A stretch of 64,000 nucleotides of DNA from Octopus vulgaris (taxonomy: Eukaryota): the NCBI GenBank assembly GCA_951406725.2, contig OX597825.1:38378001-38442000 (forward strand). The letters run 5' to 3'. The notes below the pieces were generated by a model, which was not told the origin of the DNA, made no database searches, and saw only the letters and a program-made list of their open reading frames with translations. Both the position numbers and the translations under genes were made by a program. This document shows, in pieces, positions 1 through 48,170 of the stretch. Position 1 is the first letter of the stretch, and each line of letters opens with the position of its first letter.

Positions 1-1330
1 AAAGACAACGCCACTATCACAACTTATATTTATTACAAAGGCACAGATGCACAGATATGCCTAAATTTCAAATCATGTCACCCAAGACATCCCGTACTGA
101 CTAGCCAGGAAAATCAGTTCTATAGTAGAAGATCCAAATACCAAGAACATACAACTTATAGAACTCAACGTGTTCCTATTCAAGCAAAAGTACTCTCACC
201 TGCTTCTAGAGAATAACATATTACGATTAAAATAGTTACCTATAGAACAACTTAGGGCAACACGAGAAATACGAACCCATCCACGGAACGCAATGACATT
301 TCTAGTAACACAAATATACATCACCAAAACATTTTAACATAATTAAAACAAATTTGCCAATAATGAAACAAAGTGAAAAAACTTTAAAAAGGCTTAATGA
401 CTCATTAAACACTTATCTTAAACAAAAGGCAACCGCATAACCTAAAGAAACTAGCAACTAAGGCCAAATGCAACATGGAAAAACAGAATAAAGCATTCAC
501 AGTATAAAGCGTAATGATAACGGGTTTATAACGTGTCACTACATGCATGTTAGTAGATCCATTAGAACAAAAAAGTGGACAGATTTTTGCAAATGCAGAT
601 ATGAACTGCAAAAGCAGAAATTTGGCCTACTGCATTTAGTGACCTAATTGCGAGGAACTATACACTGGCAAGACGGGGAAAGCATTACCGGAACGCTCGC
701 AAGTCCACAGACAACAAATTCGGAACACTAATGTTCGCGAAATCCCATTGAGCGAACATAGAAGCATGTGGTCAAAAATTGTTTCTAGTGTTTGCTTTCC
801 ACAATCTACGTAACAGAATTAAGTTTGTAAGAAAGATAAAAGAAAAACCTTTTATTAATATGTTCAACCCTGTTCTGAACGGAAATAACAACAATAATAT
901 AACAGCCAATTAATGATGTGGATTGAAAAATAGCTTTAACATATGAATATAAACAAATTACTGAAAACTCCCACCAACTGAAATAAAAACGATCGAAACC
1001 AACTAAGTTTGCTCACTCATAAAATCATTACAAGTAAACCGTAAGATAATAAAGGCGGGATCTATGCCAGTATTATCGGTGCATCAGGAATGACGTATAA
1101 GCTGCATGCGGATTGGTCAAAACTGTATTTAAAAAATTCAGCTTCTTGAAACTTTCTCAGATGTACAAAAAGGAAGAAGTCAGTCATTTTACTATAGTTG
1201 TCATAAACGCAACTGTCAGTTAAATACGTTTTGAAATTTGATGATTACCACGAACGTATGAAAGCTCTAATTGATCTTTAGGTACCTTACAAGACATTTT
1301 TTATATAATACTTAACACACATCATACGTT
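1..1330 (+). mobile_element. Degenerate Penelope-like retroelement, 3' part (RT thumb, GIY-YIG endonuclease, 3' UTR); runs off the window start
   Basis: Broken + strand translation gives YYKGTDA..LNFKSCHPRH, YCI..PNCEELYTGKTG, VHRQQIR, IPLSEH and KEKPFINMFNPVLN, collinear with the intact PLE protein at 10-12 kb. It contains many stops and frameshifts. Confidence 0.85.
1235..1272 (+). ncRNA. Decayed minimal type I hammerhead-like motif in the PLE 3' UTR
   Basis: aat-TTGATGA-t-tac(cacgaac)gta-t-GAAA-gctc-TA-att. The core order is right and it sits where a PLE 3' hammerhead is expected, but stems are short and the core has U3/G8. Confidence 0.4.
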
Positions 1331-4300
1331 CATTAAAAAACTTGTAAACCAGACCATATCATAACTTTATTCAACTGATGTATTATTCTATAGACATGTA
1401 CACAGATTCGGAAAATATATATATATACATATATACATACACATATATACTTGGAATAAGTATAATTATTATTTCTGTGATATGCTATATTTGATTGATT
1501 GAACATTACTCCATTATCGAGATATATTTTTCTGGATGCATTGTCACACACATTATATATAATAGTGATATATAAAACGTTGGGATTCCTAGATACTGCA
1601 TTTCATGCGCTCCCATACGGATTAAGCGTAATTTCAGCTTCAAAATTATTATCAAACAAACAGTTTTATTTGGTTGTGTGTGCATGTTTGTGCATGTGCG
1701 CGTTGATATGTTTTGAAATTATTTTTCCAGAAAAAAATTGTCAAAGGAATAAGATATCAAATAGTGAATCCCGCCTGTTTTCTTGATTTATGTATCAAAT
1801 AATAACAAACGGCAAGTTTATGAACCATTATTTTACTTGAGATGAATTATTGGTGAAAAGCTGAATATTTCAAGTTAAATACCAATATCAACTCTTCAAA
1901 AGTAAAAACGATTTAATCTTCATTTGAAGATATTTCAAAAGGTAAATGTGTTATTTATTTGGATAAGTTTTAATGCTAAGAATAGATGATGGTCATTTAT
2001 GATATTACTCCTTTAAGAATGAAAAACCGGTTTGAAATACCATCCCATTACGCCCTATAGTATATACCATTTTATTGGAGACCAACAGATTAAACTTTGG
2101 CATATTGTGATTAGACACAATAAAATAATTACAAAGACCACTATTATACTGTTGTTTTAACTCACGAGTCTAAACACGCGAGTCCATTTTCTTATTAATA
2201 ATTACAAAAGATATATATATATATATATATAAATGTTTCAGTCCGTCCATATGATGTTTATATTACGTATTTATTTATTCACAGGAAATATTTTCTCACA
2301 CCGATATACAATTTGCAATATCGGATAAGGGCATTTGATATCTGGCGTCAATAATCCTGTATCTAGAAATTTATGTGTAATTCTAAAGTCATTGTGTGTA
2401 AATTATCTTTAGGAATTCTCGCTGGAAAACAAATTACTCGACGTATATGATGTGTAGCTTAAAAAAAGTCACTGGATCTCCCTTGGAGTCGTCCAGTTGA
2501 TAGAAATGTCTCCGTGCAGTCTATACTATTATAGGAAAATATGTATCAGGTACAAGCGAGATAACAAGTGATTTCTTACTTGAGAATGCCGATGTTCAGC
2601 AATATAGCTACAGAATAATCAGTTCCATACAGTTATACGTAATTGTATAGTCAACGATTGTTAATAAATCATGTTCAATATTTCTATGATGATGTCCCTT
2701 GCTGCGATACACAAGAGGAGATTCACAACATAGAGGTGTACACGAAACCTAACTTAACAGATGGATTTCGAAAACCTATGTTACATTGAATACTGAGGAA
2801 TTACAGACCGACAGACACTAATGCGCACGCAAGCTGACACACAAACACATACACACCACTGTACACATATATTCACACGTTACGTACATACTTATATATA
2901 TACCAAAGTGTGTATATATATATATATATATAAATATATATATATGTATAAATATAGATGTATGTATATATATATATATGTGTGTGTGTGTTTGTGTGTG
3001 TTTGTGTGTGCGTGTGTGTGTGTGTGCGTGTGTATGCATCGTCATCGGCCCATCCGTATTGCTGAGTATCAGTTTTCGTATGACGGTGCCACTAAAGGCT
3101 TACAAGACAGATTTGTGACTGAAACAATACTCAACAGAGGCTAAATTTTATGGTCGGTAGTCACCTTAGTTGGAGTTAGCAGATTCAACTGTTAATTTTC
3201 ATTTCTTCGACTGCTTTTGCAAAATGTATTACGCCAGAATCGATGGTGGGACGTTACGCCGATCTGTCTACTACATTGCTCCCAGAATTTAGAATAAATA
3301 TTGTTGCGCTTGATCTTTTGTTTCAATTGGTCTTTGTTGGGTCACAGTGGAAACTAGTATGGTATCTTGCCTGTAATTAGTTCGCTGCAGAAAATTTGAA
3401 TTTGCATTTTCGTACTCTTTAATGTCCAAGGTTTTGAATGTTCCGGCGCCACAAATTTTACATCTCATACCCCTAGAGTATGGTGGAAACAAATATGGCC
3501 TTATGCATCATGAGCTTTGTTTGTAGGTTGAGCTTCATATAACCAATGACAAGCAGAAAAATTATCCAAAGCGGCATGGGCAGCTCGGATAATCTCAACA
3601 ACTTTCTCGATATTACATAATATGCAGACAATGCTTCCGAAGTGAAGAGACTGATGAATTTGTTCCAGTGCTGTGTTGAAAAAGAAAATGTTTAAATCTG
3701 GAAGGACGGAGTTTGAATCAAGCTGTGCAAGTTGCTTGTTGTTGAGTGTCAGATCGAAGCGATCATATGTATTTTTGATTTTGTTAACAGATTCCTACAG
3801 TTTTGGGTGGGAGATTGAGCTGGTAGCGCGTTGTTGTCGGCATGCTGCAGTGTAGCACGAATTTGGGTACGTTCTAGAGTAACCATGGAAGTGTTACTTT
3901 TTTCTACTCTAGTGATTCGAGAAGTATGGCTAGAAAGTTAAGATGGAACAAGGTATGGGCATATATGCAAACTTGCTTTGAGCCGTTGGGGATCAAAAAT
4001 CGTTCCAGAATATGTTTCTTTATGACATCTGCCTGTCATGCCATTGTGTAATTTCAGGCTGGGTGCAACAAAAGAATCTGGGCACCGAACCTCGTCAGAA
4101 CCTTCCGAAGAACTATGCATTTTAGGCTGTTCGAGATGATAAAAACACTCCAGAGTTTCGATATTTAATGACCTCGCACAGTTCAGTACAGACAAAGGTA
4201 CACTCATATTAGAGTAAGGTAATGCTAACCTTTTGTGATAGTGAAATTCAACTATTCTTTTTATATATCAAGTTAACATACACAAGTTAACATATATCAA

Positions 4301-5112
4301 GTTAACATACTCAACAAGACGAGGGAGCTATGGTAAAACTGCTTACATAATAATAATAGATGTACATTCGAACACTTGCGTGTTATGTAATATGGATATA
4401 CACCTTAAGTATTCCCTGTGCATGATTATTTCCTCTCGTGTTGTTGTGTATAAATCTGTTAGAACTGGAAATTATTACCACGTGTTTTATAATTCTCAGT
4501 TAGAAATTCATTATATTATTATCTCATTAGTACGTAATCTTACGTATAACTTCATACGTATAGTTTCCATCTTCTTTATTATCTTCTCTGTCTTATTTTA
4601 TCTTATTCAACATCTGTTATTTGTTTATAACCATTTATTATTTATTACATCGCCTTTCTTCTATCATCGCTGATCGATGCATTTCATTCTATTTTATTTT
4701 ATTCAACTTTCATTTTTCCGATTATATCTGAACTTTATATAGCCCTATAATGTATAAGCTATGCATATATGATTTACAATGTGTGCATGCACAGGGAATA
4801 TGTAAATATATCAGGGTGTGTATGTATAAGTGAACGTGGATTTGCATGTGTAATCGTATATGGCTATATGGAAGTATTTGCCTGTGTTTGTGACTATGTA
4901 TGTTTGTGTAAACATATATATATATATATATATATAGATAAGAAAGTTTGTTTGGTAAAGCACGTGGGTGAATATATAAGAAAATAGTAAAGTGTGAAAA
5001 AACGACAGAAGGCTTAAATGTTAAAAGATATATATATTTGTGTCAAAATGTCTGGAGAATATTGGAAAAATTTTTTTCCTTTCCTTAAAATGACATAATT
5101 TTTAAATTTTTA

Positions 5113-5152
5113 AAGAAATTACCGGTTTCGCGTGTAGCTTTTCAAATTTCTT
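5113..5152 (-). ncRNA. Minimal type I hammerhead ribozyme, U3:A8 core variant (copy in the inverted unit)
   Basis: Reverse complement reads AAGAAAU-UUGAAAA-GC(UACAC)GC-GAAA-CCG-GUA-AUUUCUU, identical to 8454-8493. Confidence 0.75.
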
Positions 5153-5288
5153 GTGACGTTATGTTTATATTGCATGGATTTATCGTTGTTTTTATTTCCA
5201 GGAGATTTCTAAATAAGGGGAGGTAGTGAGTGATTTTTTCCGGTGTAGGGGAGATAATCGCTTAAAAATTTTTTTTCCCATTTCCTTG

Positions 5289-7612
5289 TTAATTTCTCTG
5301 TGTCAGTATGTTCGGATGGTTGAGTCTGGGTTTGTACTTTTCAATGAAGAATGTTTCCTTGTTCAGTCTCATTTGTGTTGATGATCCGAAAGCACATTGG
5401 TAAAATGGGAAGATTAAAAATTGTGGCAGTAGTTGCTTTGCGCATTTCTCAATGTGCTCACTAAAAGGTATCATTCTATATTCTGGGAATGCAATCTGTT
5501 GTCGATGCAGTGTGCATCTGCGCCTGAGTGATAGTCCCGTGGAACCCACGTAGTCTTGGTGGCAGCCCGAGCATTTAATAACATAAATTATGTTTTCAGA
5601 GGCACAAGTAAAGTTAGATTTGATCTTAAATTTCTGTCCTTCTTTAAAGAAGAATTCTGATCCTTCCAATAGGTTAGGACATGTTGCACAGTTCGATCTA
5701 CCACATTTTTTTACTTTTGCATCCGTAATTTTAGAAGACAATTTTGCCTTTGTGAGAATCTTTTTAAGTGATTTAGGCTGTTTGTAGCTTTTAATGATTT
5801 GGTGTATGTTTAGAATTTCCCTTAATTTTGGGTTTTTATGAAGTATTGGTAAATTCTGGGTGATGATGGTGAAGGCTTCTTTGTTTCTGGGGTTGTATGT
5901 AGATATGTAAGGTAGTATTTTCGGGGAAGGTGTGTTGTTGTGTTGAACTTTTCTTAAAGTTTCTATGTTGATTTCTGTTGCACGTCTGATCCCATCCTCT
6001 ATGAGTTGAGCTGGGTAATGTCTGTCAATTAGGGTGTTTTTGAGTTCTTGCAGTCTAAAGTTCCTGGTATTTTGTTCTGACACTATTGTGCATATCCTTC
6101 TTGCAAGGTTGAAGGGTATGTTTGTTTTAGTGTGTCTTGGGTGGCATGAATTAAAAGAAGGTATTGTTTGGCGTCTGTGGCTTTGTAAAAAATGTCTGTT
6201 TCTATTTTAAGGTTAATTTTTTTAATTAGTATATCCAAGAACGGGAGCTCCTTTTGGTTGTATTCCATTGTGAACTGTATATTTGGGTTTATGCTGTTCA
6301 ATAGGTTTTTAAATTTTAGGAGTTTATCTATGTTTTCATTCCAGAGAATGAAACAATCGTCTAGGAATCGTTTCCAATTCTCTTTTATGTATTGAGAGAG
6401 GGAGTTTCCAAAGATTGATAGAGATTCCTGGTAAATGATTATTTCCATGTATCCCATTGTTAAGTTCGCAATGACTGGTGCTGCCCTTGTACCCATAGCA
6501 ATTCCGGATTTTTGACGGTAAAATGTATTGTCAAACATGAAGTGGTTATTGTGTAGGATGAATTCAATTGATTTAGTAATGAATTCCTTACTGATCCTTT
6601 TTGGTATTTCTTCCGGAAATTGGTCTAACCAGAATTGTATTGCCTCCAGTCCATAATTATGAGGTATACTGGTATACAAGTTGACTACATCAAATGAAAC
6701 CAGGATTGTTTCTTCCTTGGTTTTTTTTGGAAGGTGGTTTAACATATCTAAGTCATCTCTGATATGGCTATCGATATGTTTAAGGAAGGGTTTCAAGAGG
6801 ATGTCCATAAGTAGACTTAGTCTGTGTGTTTCACAGGTTGGGCCAGCTACAATGGGTCGTAGTTTTAGGTCCCCCGGATTAGCTGTGTGTATGTATGTCT
6901 TTGGTGATTTTTTAATGGTTTCATTTATAATTTGACTTTTATGAATTTTTGGCAGACCATAGAAAAGGCTAGGTTTGCATTTAAAGTTTGTTAGGAAATC
7001 AATCTCTTTGGTTGTCAGTTCCTTTTCATGGGTTTTAATTAGTGAAGATAGAGTTTTCATTATTTTTTGTGGGGTGTAGTTGGTAATTTTTTCATAATGT
7101 AGGTCTTCATCAAGCAAGGAAATTACAAGATTTCTGTAGTATGATGTATCCATTATTACAACTGCATTTCCCTTGTCCGCTTCCTTAATGGTTATATCTT
7201 CATCATTTTGGAGTTCTATCAGTTCTTTCCATTGTGTATTGTTAAAATTTGGGTTAGCTTTCTGTTTATGTATAGTATGGTAGGGGAAGTTCTCAATGTG
7301 GTTACAGAATTCGTCAAGATCTTTATTTCTTCCTCTGTGTGGGATGTGTTCACTTTTGTTCTTGACAAGTGATTCATCTTCAGTATTGAAACTGTTTGAT
7401 GCTTCTGCTAGTCTTAATTTTCTGCAAAATTCTGTTATATTATCCTTGAGTTCATTTAGGTTTGCTCTGCGTGGAGTTGGTGTAAATTTGAGCCCTTTTG
7501 CGAGGATGTCAATTTTTATGTTAGAAAGAGGTTTGGTTGAAAGATTGATTATCTTCGGTTTTTCCTTATTACTAGGTTCCAGCCTGTGTCCTGGTGTCCC
7601 TGGTCCCTGGCT
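5289..7612 (-). CDS. PLE ORF2 (reverse transcriptase + GIY-YIG endonuclease), inverted copy; one 1-nt homopolymer indel near 6153
   Basis: Motifs IINLS..KGLKFTPTP, ADKG, YGLPKIHK, LRPIVA, SFDVVNLYTSIP, GIAMG, RFLDDCF, FLDI, CGRSNCATC and IIYVIKCSGC..YVGST. Confidence 0.93.
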
Positions 7613-8102
7613 AAAAAATGTTGGGTGTAATTTTGTTTGTATGAGTTGTCTGTGAGGTTGTGTGGTATTTGGTCGGGGGAGTGGTGGTATTGTTGCCTCC
7701 GATCGTTGTGTGTGTGTGGGAATCTATGGTTGTTAATGCTTGTGGTGTGTGTAAAATTTCTGTATGGGGAATATTTTTGTTTCGAACTTCTTGTATGTGG
7801 GATGTTGCTTGACATTCTGTTTCTTTGCGTTTGTCTTGTGTTTAGTGGGGACCAGTAGTTTTGGTTCATGGGGTAGTAGTGATTTGTGTGTGGTGTATTT
7901 CTTATCCTAGTGTCGTATTGTGCTGTATGGTGGTTGGGTCTGGTATTAGGATGTTGTTGGTTTGTTCTGTTTTTGGTGTAATTTCTTTCATAGACGCGTC
8001 CTCTTTCAGCTAGTTCCCTGTTAGGTCTAGCGTGGTTTGTATAGGTTGGTTGTGGGTGATTTCTGTTTTTAGTGTATGGAGGATAGTTGGGGGTTGTTCG
8101 TG
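7549..8102 (-). pseudogene. C-terminal half of PLE ORF1 in the inverted copy (5'-truncated)
   Basis: RTTPNYPPY...NLVIRKNRR* is identical to the C-terminus of 8684..10051. The N-terminal residues of the listed ORF are antisense pLTR sequence. Confidence 0.9.
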
Positions 8103-8680
8103 ACAACAGATTGCATTCCCAGAATATAGAATGATACCTTTTAGTGAGCACATTGAGAAATGCGCAAAGCAACTACTGCCACAATTTTTAATCTTCCCAT
8201 TTTACCAATGTGCTTTCGGATCATCAACACAAATGAGACTGAACAAGGAAACATTCTTCATTGAAAAGTACAAACCCAGACTCAACCATCCGAACATACT
8301 GACACAGAGAAATTAACAAGGAAATGGGAAAAAAAATTTTTTAAGCGATTATCTCCCCTACACCGGAAAAAATCACTCACTACCTCCCCTTATTTAGAAA
8401 TCTCCTGGAAATAAAAACAACGATAAATCCATGCAATATAAACATAACGTCACAAGAAATTTGAAAAGCTACACGCGAAACCGGTAATTTCTTTAAAAAT
8501 TTAAAAATTATGTCATTTTAAGGAAAGGAAAAAAAATTTTCCAATATTCTCCAGACATTTTGACACAAATATATATATCTTTTAACATTTAAGCCTTCTG
8601 TCGTTTTTTCACACTTTACTATTTTCTTATATATTCACCCACGTGCTTTACCAAACAAACTTTCTTATCTATATATTAAA
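8102..8680 (+). repeat. Pseudo-LTR (pLTR): duplicated EN C-terminus + 3' UTR placed upstream of ORF1, acting as the 5' leader
   Basis: Direct repeat of 12096-12625 plus an extension of about 50 nt also present at 4929-4980. It contains the 61-aa EN fragment 8131..8316. Partial-tandem pLTRs are an established PLE feature. Confidence 0.93.
8454..8493 (+). ncRNA. Minimal type I hammerhead ribozyme, U3:A8 core variant (5' pLTR copy)
   Basis: Stem I AAGAAAU/AUUUCUU (7 bp). Core UUGAAAA replaces CUGANGA. Stem II is GC/GC, followed by GAAA and stem III with the palindrome ACCGGU. Predicted cleavage is after GUA (8486). Confidence 0.78.
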
Positions 8681-8695
8681 CACGTGAGAACGAAA

Positions 8696-10051
8696 ATGCC
8701 ACAGAAGTCAAACACCTCGGACAAAACCTTAAATGAGGACATACTCAAAGAACTGAAAAATATTAATTCACAGCTTCTTAACCTGAACAACAAAATCGAG
8801 GAATCAAACTTACTCGCCCGGGAAAGTAAAAGCAATGAAGATGCAACCCGTTACACTAACCAGGTGAGTAAGGATCTACAACTGTTATATACAACACTGA
8901 ACTCAATTTTTATCAACAAATCCGAAAATAATACACAGGCACCTAATGAAACACAGCAGGACACCATACGCACCCAAACCAACCCAACAAAAAGAAAAAT
9001 AGGAAACGTTTGGAATACAAACCTGCACAACAGAAAACTCACCTTCTGGAACATGATAAAAAATTCCAACAAAGCAGATATCTACGAGGGATGGATAAAC
9101 TCAACACCAATTATCCTCCCACGCAAATTCCAGATAAAATTAATTCCTAACGAGCCTGACGGACAGAGATCTATTAGAGAAAAGTCAGCTCTGTTCAATT
9201 TTAAATCAGAAATAGAGCTTCTAAGACTCAGGGCCTCCACAAATGAAGAAAAACTTAAAAGCATAGACGAGGAGATGCACAATCAAATACTTAAATATAC
9301 CGAGGGACAACCCCTCGATAATACATTGGATCACTGGAAGGATTCCTGTGAGAGAGAAGAGAGAAATTCTCTCCTACGCTGGGAGAAAAACATAGACTTC
9401 TTCCAAAAATATAGTGAAACCTTCAAAAATGAATTGGGTACAAATAATCCCTTCCTTAAGAAAATTACAATAAATAAAAAAGAAAAACCTAACAACCCAC
9501 GAACAACCCCCAACTATCCTCCATACACTAAAAACAGAAATCACCCACAACCAACCTATACAAACCACGCTAGACCTAACAGGGAACTAGCTGAAAGAGG
9601 ACGCGTCTATGAAAGAAATTACACCAAAAACAGAACAAACCAACAACATCCTAATACCAGACCCAACCACCATACAGCACAATACGACACTAGGATAAGA
9701 AATACACCACACACAAATCACTACTACCCCATGAACCAAAACTACTGGTCCCCACTAAACACAAGACAAACGCAAAGAAACAGAATGTCAAGCAACATCC
9801 CACATACAAGAAGTTCGAAACAAAAATATTCCCCATACAGAAATTTTACACACACCACAAGCATTAACAACCATAGATTCCCACACACACACAACGATCG
9901 GAGGCAACAATACCACCACTCCCCCGACCAAATACCACACAACCTCACAGACAACTCATACAAACAAAATTACACCCAACATTTTTTAGCCAGGGACCAG
10001 GGACACCAGGACACAGGCTGGAACCTAGTAATAAGGAAAAACCGAAGATAA
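8696..10051 (+). CDS. PLE ORF1: 451-aa protein with predicted coiled-coil N-terminal half and N/Q/H/R/P/T-rich low-complexity C-terminus
   Basis: Uninterrupted ORF with first ATG at 8696 (aaaATGc), directly after the pLTR. It has heptad-like segments ILKELKNINSQLLNLNNKIEESNLL and EIELLRLRASTNEEKLKSIDEEM. No catalytic motif was recognised. Confidence 0.88.
   Translation: MPQKSNTSDKTLNEDILKELKNINSQLLNLNNKIEESNLLARESKSNEDATRYTNQVSKDLQLLYTTLNSIFINKSENNTQAPNETQQDTIRTQTNPTKRKIGNVWNTNLHNRKLTFWNMIKNSNKADIYEGWINSTPIILPRKFQIKLIPNEPDGQRSIREKSALFNFKSEIELLRLRASTNEEKLKSIDEEMHNQILKYTEGQPLDNTLDHWKDSCEREERNSLLRWEKNIDFFQKYSETFKNELGTNNPFLKKITINKKEKPNNPRTTPNYPPYTKNRNHPQPTYTNHARPNRELAERGRVYERNYTKNRTNQQHPNTRPNHHTAQYDTRIRNTPHTNHYYPMNQNYWSPLNTRQTQRNRMSSNIPHTRSSKQKYSPYRNFTHTTSINNHRFPHTHNDRRQQYHHSPDQIPHNLTDNSYKQNYTQHFLARDQGHQDTGWNLVIRKNRR
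9982..9988 (+). promoter_or_regulatory. Candidate -1 programmed ribosomal frameshift slippery site U_UUU_UUA joining ORF1 to ORF2
   Basis: ORF1 codons CAT TTT TTA place the X_XXY_YYZ heptamer in the correct phase. The -1 frame is open from 9868 into RT with no ATG until 10447. The site is identical in the inverted copy (7612-7618). Confidence 0.65.
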
Positions 10052-12310
10052 TCAATCTTTCAACCAAACCTCTTTCTAACATAAAAATTGACATCCTCGC
10101 AAAAGGGCTCAAATTTACACCAACTCCACGCAGAGCAAACCTAAATGAACTCAAGGATAATATAACAGAATTTTGCAGAAAATTAAGACTAGCAGAAGCA
10201 TCAAACAGTTTCAATACTGAAGATGAATCACTTGTCAAGAACAAAAGTGAACACATCCCACACAGAGGAAGAAATAAAGATCTTGACGAATTCTGTAACC
10301 ACATTGAGAACTTCCCCTACCATACTATACATAAACAGAAAGCTAACCCAAATTTTAACAATACACAATGGAAAGAACTGATAGAACTCCAAAATGATGA
10401 AGATATAACCATTAAGGAAGCGGACAAGGGAAATGCAGTTGTAATAATGGATACATCATACTACAGAAATCTTGTAATTTCCTTGCTTGATGAAGACCTA
10501 CATTATGAAAAAATTACCAACTACACCCCACAAAAAATAATGAAAACTCTATCTTCACTAATTAAAACCCATGAAAAGGAACTGACAACCAAAGAGATTG
10601 ATTTCCTAACAAACTTTAAATGCAAACCTAGCCTTTTCTATGGTCTGCCAAAAATTCATAAAAGTCAAATTATAAATGAAACCATTAAAAAATCACCAAA
10701 GACATACATACACACAGCTAATCCGGGGGACCTAAAACTACGACCCATTGTAGCTGGCCCAACCTGTGAAACACACAGACTAAGTCTACTTATGGACATC
10801 CTCTTGAAACCCTTCCTTAAACATATCGATAGCCATATCAGAGATGACTTAGATATGTTAAACCACCTTCCAAAAAAACCAAGGAAGAAACAATCCTGGT
10901 TTCATTTGATGTAGTCAACTTGTATACCAGTATACCTCATAATTATGGACTGGAGGCAATACAATTCTGGTTAGACCAATTTCCGGAAGAAATACCAAAA
11001 AGGATCAGTAAGGAATTCATTACTAAATCAATTGAATTCATCCTACACAATAACCACTTCATGTTTGACAATACATTTTACCGTCAAAAATCCGGAATTG
11101 CTATGGGTACAAGGGCAGCACCAGTCATTGCGAACTTAACAATGGGATACATGGAAATAATCATTTACCAGGAATCTCTATCAATCTTTGGAAACTCCCT
11201 CTCTCAATACATAAAAGAGAATTGGAAACGATTCCTAGACGATTGTTTCATTCTCTGGAATGAAAACATAGATAAACTCCTAAAATTTAAAAACCTATTG
11301 AACAGCATAAACCCAAATATACAGTTCACAATGGAATACAACCAAAAGGAGCTCCCGTTCTTGGATATACTAATTAAAAAAATTAACCTTAAAATAGAAA
11401 CAGACATTTTTTACAAAGCCACAGACGCCAAACAATACCTTCTTTTTAATTCATGCCACCCAAGACACACTAAAACAAACATACCCTTCAACCTTGCAAG
11501 AAGGATATGCACAATAGTGTCAGAACAAAATACCAGGAACTTTAGACTGCAAGAACTCAAAAACACCCTAATTGACAGACATTACCCAGCTCAACTCATA
11601 GAGGATGGGATCAGACGTGCAACAGAAATCAACATAGAAACTTTAAGAAAAGTTCAACACAACAACACACCTTCCCCGAAAATACTACCTTACATATCTA
11701 CATACAACCCCAGAAACAAAGAAGCCTTCACCATCATCACCCAGAATTTACCAATACTTCATAAAAACCCAAAATTAAGGGAAATTCTAAACATACACCA
11801 AATCATTAAAAGCTACAAACAGCCTAAATCACTTAAAAGATTCTCACAAAGGCAAAATTGTCTTCTAAAATTACGGATGCAAAAGTAAAAAAATGTGGTA
11901 GATCGAACTGTGCAACATGTCCTAACCTATTGGAAGGATCAGAATTCTTCTTTAAAGAAGGACAGAAATTTAAGATCAAATCTAACTTTACTTGTGCCTC
12001 TGAAAACATAATTTATGTTATTAAATGCTCGGGCTGCCACCAAGACTACGTGGGTTCCACGGGACTATCACTCAGGCGCAGATGCACACTGCATCGACAA
12101 CAGATTGCATTCCCAGAATATAGAATGATACCTTTTAGTGAGCACATTGAGAAATGCGCAAAGCAACTACTGCCACAATTTTTAATCTTCCCATTTTACC
12201 AATGTGCTTTCGGATCATCAACACAAATGAGACTGAACAAGGAAACATTCTTCATTGAAAAGTACAAACCCAGACTCAACCATCCGAACATACTGACACA
12301 GAGAAATTAA
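9988..12310 (+). CDS. PLE ORF2: reverse transcriptase + Cys linker + GIY-YIG endonuclease (about 775 aa once two 1-nt homopolymer deletions near 10875 and 11837 are corrected)
   Basis: ORF pieces 10447..10914, 10920..11888 and 11858..12310 plus the open upstream frame (KIINLSTKPLS..LAKGLKFTPTP..IKEADKG). RT motifs FDV..LYTSI, MG..AP and FLDD. CX4CX2C linker and a GIY-YIG-like IIY..CxxC..YVG motif. Confidence 0.95.
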
Positions 12311-12444
12311 CAAGGAAATGGGAAAAAAATTTTTAAGCGATTATCTCCCCTACACCGGAAAAAATCACTCACTACCTCCCCTTATTTAGAAATCTCCTGA
12401 AATAAAAACAACGATAAATCCATGCAATATAAACATAACGTCAC

Positions 12445-12484
12445 AAGAAATTTGAAAAGCTACACGCGAAACCGGTAATTTCTT
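12445..12484 (+). ncRNA. Minimal type I hammerhead ribozyme, U3:A8 core variant (3' copy)
   Basis: Identical to 8454-8493. Confidence 0.78.
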
Positions 12485-12616
12485 TAAAAATTTAAAAATT
12501 ATGTCATTTTAAGGAAAGGAAAAAAATTTTTCCAATATTCTCCAGACATTTTGACACAAATATATATATCTTTTAACATTTAAGCCTTCTGTCGTTTTTT
12601 CACACTTTACTATTTT

Positions 12617-12618
<2 letters not shown>

Positions 12619-12673
<55 letters not shown>
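12619..12673. repeat. (TA)n microsatellite at the PLE right boundary (target site)
   Basis: Pure TA run, with a matching (TA)n at about 4914-4935 on the left boundary. Confidence 0.95.
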
Positions 12674-16764: not shown

Positions 16765-18840
16765 AAGTATGAGAATTTACTTCACAGGTGATCTAAACGA
16801 TTAGGTACGCTAGGTAAGTTCTGTGTAAAGGCTTGTGTAATTTCGCATTGGTCAGTAAGGTCTTTAGAGATTTGGGTTGTCTGTTGCTTTTTTATTATTT
16901 TATGGGTTTCGAGTGCTTTTTTAACCGTGGGTCTTGATTCAACAGTTGGATGTTCTTGTATATAATCGTGGAAGCTTCTCTATTTCTTGGATGGTGTTTG
17001 AGAGATATGGGAGACTATTTAATGTAGTTTGAGTGTGTTTCTGTTTTTGTTAATATTGGATAAAAATTGTTTTGTCCCGTTCTATTCCTTTGTCAATTAT
17101 TGATGTTGGGTACCGTCTTTCAAGAAGAATTTCTGATACTTCTTGGAGTCTTTTATTTCGGATTTCATAATTTGAGACAATTGTACAGATTCTTCTCGCT
17201 AGATAGAAGGGGATGGTTGTATTCGTGCGCTTTGGGTGATTGGAGGTGAACAAGGGGTATTGTTTTAAATCATTCGGTTTGTATTGAATATCAGTTTCTT
17301 GTTGATGCCTTTTTATTAATAAGCATGTCTAGAAATGGGAGTTGGGCTTGACTATATTCCATTGTAAATTGGACATGTTTGTTGACATTATTAATTAAAT
17401 TTTTGAATCCATTGAGTTGGTCGAAGTGTGTGAGACCATAGAATAAAGCAGTCGTCCAAGTAGCGTTTCCAATTCTCCAACAGATATTGGTCGAAACACA
17501 GGCCGTATTTTAATTTGGATTGTTCATATATTTATGTGTCCACGTAGGCCGTCAACAGATTGGCATAATTTGGGGAAACTTTAGTACCCATTGTTGTCCC
17601 TGATACATGTTTGTGGGTATTATTATTAAAATTTAAAATGTTATTTTGGAGGATAAACTTAAGGCCCTCAATGATAAATTCATTTTTGATTCTTTCCAGA
17701 AACTCATTGGTGTATTTTTCTAGCCGAAAGTTAATGATTTCCACGCTGTATTGACGTGGAATCGTGGAATAAAGTTTTATCACATAAAAAATGACTATGA
17801 AAATGTTTTCATTAGCTTGTTTGAGGAGATAGTTTAGGAGAGGCAGGTCATCTCTTGCAATACTTGGTATGTGTTTAAGCATTGGTTTTAAGAGTATATC
17901 AATGAAGTTGCTACATTTGTGTGTTTCGAACTTTGGACCTGTCACATTTGATTTCAGCTTGAGATCGGTGGGGGTGTCGAGTAGAATTTGAGCAAATGTC
18001 TCAAATCATGAAAAAACAAAACTCCAAGAATGAAAGGAAATTCTACTCGAAATTCGGTACCCAGCATCATTAGTTGACAATAGAATAGAACAGGACAAGA
18101 CAATCGATATCCAAGACTTACGAAAACCGAAACACACTCAAGGTACAGTGATCTACGGAGGCCCGTAGAGGTTGCTGATTTTGCAATCAAAATTTGTTAA
18201 GTATTCACATTCTTTTTTCGTTAGGTTATTATGATGTTGGCAAATGAGTGTGTTTAGTTTCGACATCATTTTGAGTATTGTTAGTTGACTACTCTTTCAT
18301 GGTGGGTAGCTTCTTCTAAGTGGTGAGATACAGAATTTTTGTATTGTTCTGTGTCCATAATTACGATAGTACTACCCTTATCTGCTTCCTTAATTGTGAT
18401 GTTATGATTGTTTTGTAATTCGTGGATGATTTCCCATTCCCTTTTACTGGTATTGGCTTTGGGTTTAGATTGTGGTAGATCACTATAAGGGACGTTTGAT
18501 ACGTAATCACAATATTTGCCCAACGTTTTATTACTGCCTTTTGTATGATTGCAATTACTTTTATTGCATACCATTGATTCGTACTTATTATTTTCTTTGT
18601 CAAAAAATTCTTCTGTGAATCGTAATTTTCTACAGAAGTGTGGGACATAGTCATGTATTTCATTGAGGTCAGGGTATCGTGTGTCGGAGTAAATTTCAAT
18701 CCTTTTGAGAGAATTTTGTTTTTTGGGGGATTGACAGGTTGGCAGATTCACTATTTCTGGATTTCAGGGTTGGTATACACCATCTGGTGTTGTAGATTCT
18801 ATTGTGTTGAACTATAAACTGATTTCTGGACATTCTTATG
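16763..18840 (-). mobile_element. Degenerate Penelope-like element (RT region), related to the 5-12 kb family
   Basis: FCRKLRFTEEF, ITIKEADKGSTIVIMD, GPKFETHKCSNFIDILLKP, GTTMGTKVSPNYANL and SNHPKRTNTTIPFYLARRICTIVS, with many frameshifts and stops. Confidence 0.9.
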
Positions 18841-19849: not shown

Positions 19850-20820
19850 AGTCGTGCTTAACTGAAAATGAATATTATTTATGGAAGTAAAGCAGATTAC
19901 ATTCTTTAATAGTAAGTTAGCGGCGCATGAAGTAAATTTTGATAATTTTGAATGAGAATAAATTCAATGTAGTAATAGTAAGAAAGTTTATGTAAACTTT
20001 CTTGAACAATAAAGAGTGGGAGAAAATGACACAGTGAGGAGTAAATGTGTGATGAAGTGTAAATTATATGAGACGTATTCTGGTGTTAGTTTATACAATG
20101 TGAATGCTTGGTAAAACATTAAGGAAAAGAATTACTTTAGGAAGCTATAAACACCGTTGACAGTAAAATATGGTAACAGTATTTTAGTGAAGATAAGGAT
20201 AGTGAATATAGTAGAGATAATGATGATGATGTGAGGAAGAATAGAAGGGAAAGAAATGATGGTTAAGCTATTTTTGCACTGATGATGCTGCTTGTGAAAA
20301 AATTCTTTATGGTTTGTAATAAAGACAACGAAATTTTCTATAGCGTATAGAGGAATGCATTATTGATATTTTTATTTAAGCAATCGCGGTTTACCTCCAG
20401 AGATAGTGGTATCAGTGGCTGTTTTAGTAAGAGTTTTAGCAATATTCGGCACTATAGGTTTGTCACTAGTCATAGTAATGTTGCTTGGAAGATGTGAATA
20501 ACTTGATAAATATACATTATTTTTGTAACGAACAATGTTATGAAAAAGGTAAGGAAAATAAGATAAGAAACAAAAAATATTATACACTAAGAAATTTGGG
20601 ACATTAAACTTATTAGTTTTATGTGATTCAAAAAAGAAGACAATATGTTGGGTGGACAAAATTGTTGAAACAGTGGGGATGCTCTAAATTTCAGTAACAA
20701 TAGACAATAACCTATCTTCATTGAATATGACCCAGCTTTGAAAAAGAAAAAAATCTATAAAGCCGCTGCAAGTAGTTAAGAAATTTCCTGTAAGTTCTAT
20801 TGTCAATTTTTCCTAAATGT
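19850..20820 (-). pseudogene. Possible decayed intronless 7TM (class A GPCR-like) sequence
   Basis: Successive hydrophobic segments in broken minus-strand frames, e.g. STILSTQHIVFFFES, FLVYNIFCFLSYFPYLF, IISFPSILPHIIIIISTIFTILIF and FTPHCVIF. No intact signature motif. Confidence 0.25.
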
Positions 20821-45696: not shown

Positions 45697-45740
45697 GCAC
45701 CTGATGAAGGCCGGTGGGTATATCAGCCGAAACGTTGTGT
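45697..45740 (+). ncRNA. Minimal type I hammerhead ribozyme within short repeat 45652-45830
   Basis: GCAC-CUGAUGA-A-GGCCGG(UGGGUAUA)UCAGCC-GAAA-C-GUU-GUGU. Canonical core with palindromic AACGUU in stem III. Confidence 0.8.
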
Positions 45741-46402: not shown

Positions 46403-48170
46403 CTACTTATATGCACTAAATGTATGTTTTTTTCCAATGCTTACATCTGTATGCTCGCTCTATAACCGTGTTTACTAGAGTATTTTTAGGAAAAATAATG
46501 AAAAATAGCTCAGAATTACAGAGAAGACAGAATTTCTTGCCTTTGTCATATGGTATCAAAATTGAGAGGATCGACCATTCTGAATGAAATTGTTCATTGT
46601 GGTCTTTTAAATCCCAAATCAGTTTGCTGAGACCGGTACTATTCCGTTTATTTCTACCCTAAATGTTGAGTAATCGATAGAAATTTTTTTAAAATAACTC
46701 TAACGATGTGCTTCCAATGTAAAATCGTACTTTATTACGAGTAGTGATTATACACTGGTATATAGAATTTTTAATCTTAGAGTTACTTGACTTAAACTTA
46801 ATTCTATTGTAATTGACTTCAGATACAATAACCTTGTTATTAATATTTCTAGAGGGTTGGATGGTATAAACTAAATTAATGTTAGTATTAGTAAATGTAT
46901 TAATATTTAACAGTTTGTTATTATGAGAAGATATGATTTGCAAAAGATTTTTTGTGTTTGAAAAACCTATCCTAACCTTATGTGAATTGATTATAGAGTA
47001 ATATCTAGACATTTTTGGAAAATTCCTAGCAATAGCTTGACGAAACAGCAGTAGGAGATTAGATTTAATTTGTCTCCCGTAAGGAATTATTAACCAAATA
47101 TTTTTACTAGTAATCATAGCGTAATTACTTTTGAAGGTGTTATATTTACTCTTAGATCGATAATAGGGAATTAAATAAGGGTTATCTGCCTTCATTCGCT
47201 TTGTATCGGTGCGTAAGTTATGTTTGTTATCAATAATTCTTTTACGACTAGAAATCTTATCTCCATTATTGAATTTACAATTAGACTGAGCAGAATCAAT
47301 GTAGAAATTTTTTTCTGTATAACCTGCTTTGATTAAGGCAGAGTTATAGAATTCAGCGTTATTATTGAAAATATCAACATTAGCAGATAATTTAGATAAT
47401 CTAAATGAAATATTCTTAACTAAGTTCTTAGTAATTGCTCCAGGATGATTACTAAATTTGCTAATGTACTTAAGATTGGTCAACGGTTTATGATATGGGA
47501 AGTAAGAGTCACTGTGTAAATTAAGCGTAATATCTAAAAAGTTGGCCTTCGTCAGATCGTCATCAAAAACGATTTTTAAGCCCATTCTACTGAAAAAATT
47601 AACTAAACTATTCTTAAGTTTTTGTACCTTTTGGTTGGAAACATTTTGGAGGTAAAGTAAACAATCATCACGATATAGACCTCCATAAATGTTAGGGAAC
47701 TCTTCAGCCATTTCAAAAAGAATATATATACAGACCAAATCAGCTATCTGTGCTGAATCAGAACTTCCCATTGGTATATCGAAACTATCTGGTGTGTCTT
47801 TACGGACCCACAACTTATCATCAAATTTAATAATAGATCTTCTAGCTGCCAATACAACATTAATTTCTTCTCGGGTGAGACCAGCTTTGTTATGAGCAAG
47901 CCAAAGTGCCTTATTAAGTACTATTGGATTAATAGATGAATAAAAATTGGAAATATCAAACTGGATAAACTTTGTACTCACCTTATTGTTAATAGAACTA
48001 AACCAGTCAACTACTTCAAATGAATTAGTCCATAAACTAAGTTTTAATGTTTTGATTAAATTAGGAATATATTTATCTAGTATATTTTTACTAAGGATAC
48101 CGATGTCAGAGCTAGAAGGGCAGATAAGCCTTAATTTGGTTTGTGATCCTTCAAAATGTAAGTAAGGTTG
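46403..48170 (-). pseudogene. PLE RT-GIY-YIG coding remnant (includes the 430-aa ORF 46689..47981)
   Basis: LKDHKPN, RLICP, QFDISNFYSSI, MGSSDSAQIADLV, LYRDDCL, NFLDITLNL, SNHP and SIYQC..FYIGST. After a frameshift it continues STGLSKLIWDLK..EWSIL..CLLCNSE..CKHWKK. Confidence 0.9.

Follow-up and report, generated by a model that had tools for sequence, protein, structure and literature searches.

A Neptune-like Penelope element of Octopus vulgaris with an upstream ORF1 and a probable -1 frameshift into its RT-EN gene

Main finding

The stretch of Octopus vulgaris DNA analysed in this study (64,000 nt, hereafter the window) contains what we read, with a probability of about 0.7, as a young, endonuclease (EN)-bearing, Neptune-like Penelope element (PLE) with two overlapping genes, expressed in the style of gag-pol and with the ORF1 protein (ORF1p) serving as a scaffold. 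ORF1 itself is a real and conserved gene, which probably resembles gag and LINE ORF1p in its way of working, is a member of neither family, and is joined to the reverse transcriptase (RT)-EN gene by a probable programmed -1 frameshift. The suggestion of a previous sequence-only reading, that a separate and selected ORF1 travels with a PLE RT, is supported by the relatives, as RT and EN lie downstream of ORF1 on the same strand in all eight relative contigs, a sample that was picked by an ORF1-core pattern and therefore covers ORF1 carriers and not RTs without ORF1.

The element in the window

ORF1 occupies positions 8696..10051 of the + strand as an open frame of 451 aa ending in a TAA stop, by translation, and ORF2 is found at 9982..12310 (+) in the -1 frame relative to ORF1, this frame being open from 9877. 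The motifs located in ORF2, all on the + strand, are N1 (10048), DKG (10420), the RT catalytic motif (11229), a CX4CxxC linker (11894-11920) and GIY-YIG (from 12011). RVT_1 matches the frame of the twin copy described below (E 1.7e-7), and the GIY-YIG match is weak (E 0.003, short of the cut-off). An RT with N1 and DKG followed by GIY-YIG, together with pseudo-LTRs (pLTRs), a partial tandem and inverted layout and a variant hammerhead in the pLTR, place the element with the PLEs that carry a C-terminal EN, whereas in place of the single ORF of their canonical members there are two overlapping frames, both in the window and in the eight relative contigs.

The 5' pLTR (8102..8676, +), recognised by its repeats, represents the 3' terminus of an upstream unit that is itself truncated: 8102-8634 recurs at 12096-12625, at a spacing of about 3.99 kb, and 8327-8676 recurs inverted at 4930-5279. 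The 3' pLTR (12096..12625, +) carries a hammerhead-like copy (12445-12484) followed by (TA)n. An inverted, 5'-truncated twin (4930..8102, - strand) comprises ORF1 aa 269-451, the RT and the EN and also ends in (TA)n, which stands at both outer ends of the paired copies. The twin and the + copy show no substitution up to the end of the 3' pLTR, and since they differ inside the unit by 1-nt indels in runs only, the insertion is recent. In the + copy, ORF2 is interrupted near 10872 and near 11835, in homopolymer runs in both cases; the twin is free of these two breaks, short-read contigs show indels there (10871, 11834), and the twin has a single break of its own near 6156.

A descriptor scan of the window found a minimal type-I hammerhead-like motif three times, in each case in a pLTR copy, at 8454-8493 (+), 12445-12484 (+) and 5113-5152 (-). 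With its 7-bp stem I, 2-bp stem II and palindromic CCGG, and with a U3-A8 pair replacing C3-G8, the motif is predicted to be a hammerhead-like variant. The standard hammerhead core pattern misses this U3-A8 variant, and the Rfam search of the window left the motif unscored and returned only microsatellite miRNA noise. A standard core-like motif is present in all eight relative contigs, in seven of them about 130-210 nt 5' of the ORF1 ATG.

Predicted structure and composition of ORF1p

ORF1p is predicted to consist of three parts: a heptad hairpin at the N terminus, a three-helix core rich in Trp, and a basic tail rich in N, R, Q and P. The model of aa 1-260, built on an alignment of 104 sequences, is nearly all helix (pLDDT 90), with six helices at aa 7-43, 47-78, 85-101, 103-135, 155-201 and 204-247, which agrees with the helical N-terminal part of about 260 aa proposed by the sequence-only reading. 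The first part (aa 7-78; 8714..8929, +) consists of two long helices with heptad bias and poor sequence conservation, and the second (aa 85-247; 8948..9436, +) is a conserved helical core, which gave an AF2 pLDDT of 95.7 and a pTM of 0.86 when modelled by itself (aa 85-260). The two motifs that had been quoted for a W-rich middle were both located, one at aa 105 and the other at aa 130. Two heptad-like stretches had also been described and, with the best register picked by script, hydrophobic residues do occupy 6/10 a/d positions against 5/27 others in aa 7-43 and 8/14 against 6/33 in aa 155-201, although the bias is only moderate.

The tail (aa 261-451; 9476..10048, +) is of low complexity, and disorder is predicted from its composition (N 14.7, R 12.0, T 11.5, P 9.4, H 8.9, Q 7.9 and Y 7.3%), the residues in which a tail of about 190 aa had been said to be rich. 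It had also been called nearly devoid of aliphatic residues; I, L, V and M are about threefold rarer than in the N-terminal part (7.3% vs 20.8%) but not absent. The description as prion-like is better replaced by "basic, disordered", as the tail is rich in R/K, P and H, low in G/S and carries a net charge of +22, with N+Q of about 0.22, K+R of 0.15-0.18 and G+S of 0.02-0.12 per 60-aa window. Part of this composition is explained by the coding DNA (45% A, 31% C), since DNA rich in A and C would on its own bias a protein towards N, T, H, Q and P. The tail cannot be aligned across the family, yet it is net positive in 71/71 full-length members (median +12).

Neither a zinc knuckle nor an RRM had been recognised by eye, and this can be extended to the family: no CCHC knuckle occurs in the 73 full-length ORF1 proteins (query included), no RRM or knuckle family is matched in Pfam among 104 family members, and the model is all-helical. 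Sequence searches of Pfam, PHROGs and the PDB with ORF1 gave nothing specific, the PDB matches to aa 10-105 being coiled-coil decoys, and Foldseek against the PDB and viral models gave no match at E<=0.001. The ESM Atlas search gave nothing at 0.9 or more, and the Atlas feature matches to Basidiomycota clusters score 0.80-0.83, below the 0.9 lead level. The fold neighbours of the core in VIA-align (best Z 8.9 and 8.8, the latter with an rmsd of 6.2 and 124 aligned) are generic helical bundles, among them the three-helix bundle of syntaxin Habc (Z 8.6, rmsd 6.1 over 118 residues); they name no function and prove no new fold.

ORF1 family and selection

The earlier term "orphan" is apt in that ORF1 belongs to no named family, but it is not without relatives: a phmmer search with aa 1-270 gave 567 clusters at E<=0.001, of which 225 reach 1e-10. 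The best 150 of the 567 are all 644 aa or shorter, about ten of them matching the first 57-68 aa only, and one further member carries the species name Pinctada imbricata. Word-index protein searches with ORF1 returned 5 and 3 proteins. Near-invariant residues of the core in the 71 full-length members are W106, R113, W118, W133, P142, E153, R161, D191, W214, E222 and S225.

Peptide-pattern scans of IMG/VR and JGI gave no relative. With a degenerate DNA pattern for the ORF1 core, JGI metagenomes yielded 77 loci, GTDB yielded 18 and IMG/VR none. The ORF1 HMM kept 9 of these 95 loci and 86 were dropped as chance; with L002 and L003 on one contig, eight distinct contigs were obtained. A CX2-5CxxC linker is found in the window and in seven of the eight contigs (the contig of the unmatched L010 does not include that stretch), and a GIY-YIG region in 9/9 elements.

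In the five closest pairs, the core shows dN of 0.25-0.41 and pS of 0.75-0.95, and pN is lower than pS in 36/36 pairs; with the Nei-Gojobori method used, dS is mostly saturated, so that only an upper bound on dN/dS is obtained. This pattern shows that the ORF1 core is under purifying selection. Seven single-site ORF1 variants from contigs (2 synonymous, 5 not) represent a selected subset and were left out of the selection analysis. Trees of ORF1 and ORF2 from eight elements (L071 left out), which hold no reference PLE sequences, have both well-supported splits in common and differ in one split that is not among these.

These data bear on the explanation that ORF1 is a captured host gene or exon carried without function. 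Its named matches are indeed Octopus vulgaris gene models (a PTP receptor and DGCR6), but the similarity is confined to roughly the first 56-70 aa, and the models seem to have borrowed the donor of the element; ORF1 as such matches neither a known domain nor a host gene, with no hit in Pfam or the PDB, and the sequence collections covered contained no RT-free, single-copy host orthologue of the core in a syntenic position. Together with the RT downstream in 8/8 contigs, the purifying selection and the concordant trees, this makes a captured gene scarcely credible.

The ORF1/ORF2 junction

ORF1 and the RT frame overlap by 175 nt. Of in-phase slippery heptamers, this overlap contains a single one, U UUU UUA (9982..9988, +), which covers ORF1 Phe430-Leu431 and is the proposed site of the -1 frameshift. 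The first ATG of the RT frame in the window lies at 10447, well 3' of the conserved N1 motif. All nine junctions, that of the window and those of the eight relatives, place ORF2 in the -1 frame and carry a heptamer in phase with ORF1. Its sequence is U UUU UUA in six (window, L002, L010, L025, L030 and L037) and U UUU UUG in two (L024, L071), while L073 has C CCU UUU. A conserved in-phase X XXY YYZ, as known from programmed -1 frameshifting, is thus present in the overlap of all nine, with the reservations that the UUG ending of two is atypical for a slippery site and that an NN gap just upstream makes the ORF1 phase of L073 uncertain. In the six complete ORF1s (2,814 codons), an in-phase U6-purine occurs once per ORF1, 30-93 nt 5' of the stop, and at 8/8 U6 junctions there is no upstream Met in the -1 frame, the first Met lying 3' of N1. 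ORF2 is intact in L002, L030 and L037 (784, 796 and 800 aa); ORF1 of L071 is broken, and the contigs of L025 and L071 are circularly permuted.

The wider family shows the same feature at the protein level. FL or FF occurs within the last 45 aa in 63/73 proteins of 320-560 aa (query included), compared with 3/73 and 7/73 in control windows, and 10/73 proteins are without it; in 22 of the 63, the motif is exactly 12 aa from the end, with the stop 10 codons past FL. From these comparisons we infer that ribosomes probably shift -1 at the 9982 heptamer.

The two window copies differ internally by 1-nt run indels only, which would also suit one long ORF, consisting of an N-terminal extension and the RT, that was interrupted in the T run through a mutation or an error of sequencing. 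Against this, the heptamer is crossed with no gap by short-read contigs of 4/4 runs from four studies (X1, 9643-10878; X2, 8914-10419; X17, 9944-10136; X19, 9778-10203), and since the same runs do show indels at 10871/11834, the -1 offset is no error but a property of the family. The junction is identical in both window copies, the twin having the same heptamer at 7612-7618, and eight other elements with very divergent ORF1s have the same -1 offset. Further, none of the best 150 relatives exceeds the 644 aa given above, and a word-index search, itself weak, found no relative and no fused ORF1-RT protein among proteins of 791-2255 aa. A broken single ORF is therefore refuted for the family by the gap-free reads at 9982 and the offset in the relatives, and its probability is practically nil.

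No stimulatory hairpin or pseudoknot was detected above shuffles within 55-70 nt at any of the nine junctions (z -1.2 to +1.3; the scanned window of L024 was displaced by 1 nt). This result would suit a route in which ORF2 is reached by polymerase slippage, with an extra U in some transcripts, or by a non-AUG start, and the U run is a possible substrate for slippage. However, the run has only six U, and only four in L073, where C CCU UUU keeps the pattern XXXYYYZ; moreover, the strict ORF1 phase matches tRNA re-pairing, and the -1 frame of L024 is open just one codon before the site. We consider slippage or a non-AUG start improbable.

The U run followed by AG might also be regarded as a 3' splice acceptor, so that RT-EN would be made from a spliced RNA skipping most of ORF1. 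UUUUUUAG is present in 6/8 U6 junctions, a consensus donor-like site occurs in the window at 8861..8869 (+; cut at 8863/8864, after ORF1 codon 56), and the available text of PMC4209133 describes introns retained by PLEs. On the other hand, L024 has no AG in the next 12 nt, L071 has none directly past the run, and the nearest acceptor-like AG in L073 sits in another phase. Donor-like sites vary in place and phase among the nine elements, L025 having none and the position of the window site being unconserved in the eight relatives. By coordinates, joining the phase-0 donor of the window to this AG does not give the ORF2 frame; another AG, 4 nt further on, would do so but is unconserved. At least 12 of the 63 FL/FF motifs precede a residue whose codon cannot complete AG, and splicing would not need the U run to be held in the ORF1 phase. 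The short-read contigs, weak evidence here because contigs drop rare forms, list no splice joint at 8863 or 9989. Splicing is thus very improbable as the source of RT-EN, and -1 frameshifting remains the preferred explanation.

Two further observations were made around the site. In some families the ORF1 frame encodes a DxxW motif (DTGW, DTRW, DHNW) downstream of the slippery site, at variable spacing (L002:1330-1375, L010, L073 and window 9989-10051); the motif may act as a peptide signal at the C terminus or reflect an element in the RNA. A subgroup (L073:2860-2890; P0074, P0089 and P0013) ends in F-R or F-Q and not in F-L, and the heptamer of L073 is displaced one codon upstream (C CCU UUU); these shifts in position and ending suggest turnover of the shift site.

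Proposed expression and function

On the preferred reading, ribosomes would initiate at the ORF1 AUG (8696), and most of them would terminate at 10051 and release ORF1p, while a minority would slip -1 at U UUU UUA (9982-9988) and produce a fusion of ORF1, RT and EN. Counted from the coordinates, 431 codons up to the site and about 776 beyond it would give this fusion a length of about 1,200 aa. ORF1p would most likely self-associate via the heptad helices at its N terminus and via the helical core, and bind the element RNA with its basic disordered tail, and the resulting RNP or condensate would recruit the rare fusion through its ORF1 part. That ORF1p is an oligomeric RNA scaffold of this kind is the role we favour, with somewhat less assurance than the frameshift. 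An analogy with gag and LINE ORF1p had been drawn from the sequence; the conserved gag-pol-type -1 slippery site is a strong argument for its gag side, whereas the family has no knuckle or RRM.

The main alternative role for ORF1p is targeting or host interaction, in which the frameshift is real and ORF1p acts as a chromatin or membrane tether or a silencing antagonist, the tail serving localisation. The invariant Trp, Arg, Glu and Asp of the folded core, as in a specific binding surface, would be consistent with such a module, as would the missing RRM and knuckle and the generic three-helix bundles, such as syntaxin Habc, found as best fold neighbours. However, a -1 shift giving a high ORF1:RT ratio suits structural or packaging proteins, as is established for gag-pol and would apply here by extension, and a positive net charge is kept in 71/71 tails. 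Targeting is accordingly thought unlikely, and the scaffold role is preferred.

ORF1 may bear on how PLE RNA is packaged and chaperoned, and the family provides a compact domain that is modelled with confidence and falls into no named family, together with a short recoding signal. Two overlapping frames also account for an annotation error, as such elements seem 5'-truncated or start-less. It is possible, though doubtful as yet, that a widespread EN-bearing PLE lineage assembles a particle or condensate of its own out of an undescribed all-helical protein and sets the ratio of structural protein to enzyme by -1 frameshifting without a pseudoknot; if true, a gag-pol strategy would have been arrived at without gag.

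Comparison with known systems

The sequence-only reading assigned ORF1 to a class usually thought to lack one. This holds for canonical EN-bearing PLEs, which are described as single-ORF, the available text of the review PMC6431247 dividing PLEs into those with one ORF and EN and those with two ORFs without EN. It does not hold for PLEs at large: in the accessible parts of PMC8557442, PMC6431247 and PMC13159263, the two-ORF, EN-less Athena/Terminons and one Coprina family (Coprina-1_Alen) have an upstream coiled-coil ORF1, that of Coprina-1_Alen being coil plus disorder, and the legend of Fig. 1 in PMC8557442 already mentions an ORF1 set apart in some cases by a frameshift with a pseudoknot. 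In contrast to Athena and Coprina, which have no EN and attach to telomeres, the element in the window and its eight relatives carry GIY-YIG, with (TA)n flanks in the window, and no pseudoknot was detected at the nine junctions. The clade meant by the legend is, we assume, Athena, whose ORF1-RT junctions use T6A/T6G -1 sites. If the core is homologous to the ORF1s of Athena and Coprina, an ORF1-frameshift-RT cassette would be ancestral in the retroelements closest to telomerase.

Compared with canonical EN-bearing PLEs, the present family has an ORF1 of 350-550 aa that overlaps ORF2 at a conserved slippery site; it breaks the usual split between one ORF with EN and two ORFs without, and copies are intact in several relatives. 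As in the Neptune clade, the RT is followed by a CX2-5CxxC linker and GIY-YIG, and pLTRs, a partial tandem and inverted layout and a pLTR hammerhead are present. The Neptune likeness rests on linker and layout, the window linker resembling the Neptune1_Nv row in the accessible supplementary alignment of PMC8557442; Nematis likewise has a (reduced) linker, and a killifish Neptune carries an unassigned 420-nt ORF1 in the available text of PMC12602865. Chlamys-2/5_cBra, described in the available text of PMC8557442 as PLEs with an N-terminal EN, are also EN-bearing elements with an upstream ORF1, but their gag-like ORF1 has a CCHC knuckle and their EN is N-terminal, whereas here 0/73 proteins have a knuckle and the EN is C-terminal.

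U_UUU_UUA is the shift site of HIV in the available text of PMC5009743. The element shares with HIV-1 gag-pol the heptamer, its phase and a structural-type gene 5' of the polymerase; in contrast to retroviral gag-pol, no convincing capsid fold and no knuckle or protease was found, and no stem-loop after the site. LINE-1 ORF1p is a trimeric coiled coil with an RRM and a CTD. The likeness to ORF1p consists of N-terminal heptad helices in the first ORF and, by analogy, a likely RNP role, while the present protein differs in having no RRM, an all-helical core and a long basic disordered tail; moreover, ORF1 and ORF2 are separate in L1 and overlap here.

The design of an ORF1 with a frameshift is thus already known in PLEs. 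Its presence in Neptune-like elements with a C-terminal EN, and this ORF1 family, were not found described in the literature passages and listings searched, and an earlier description may exist elsewhere.

Host gene models and other features of the window

A first exon-like piece of such elements gets into host gene models. The matches of ORF1 to the Octopus vulgaris models P0004 (PTP receptor) and P0005 (DGCR6) end near 8861-8869, and in these two and in about ten short matches the first exon consists of ORF1 aa 1-56; P0006 joins the piece of aa 1-56 to the tail, with the core skipped. This use of aa 1-56 reflects either mis-annotation or real chimeric transcripts from a promoter of the element. 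The short-read contigs X1 and X2 are guessed to come from RNA-derived runs, and the loose ends of X2 are presumably template-switch adaptor; contigs cannot show transcription.

The window contains other PLE remains. A decayed second PLE of another family (about 16840-18800, - strand) has 38% identity to the RT and is frameshifted, and the ORF1 HMM found no match upstream of it. An open frame of 493 aa (46692-48170, - strand) encodes, by eye, a short PLE-type RT (YRDD) that ends at the start of a GIY-YIG motif with no linker; Pfam gave no match for this frame, which is possibly Hydra-like. A PLE thumb/EN-like fragment was recognised by similarity at 74-759 (+). Hammerhead-core-like motifs were found with the core pattern at 45701-45732 (+), 4052-4098 (-) and 20279-20299 (+), and the pattern has 8 matches in the window in total compared with 3.3 expected.
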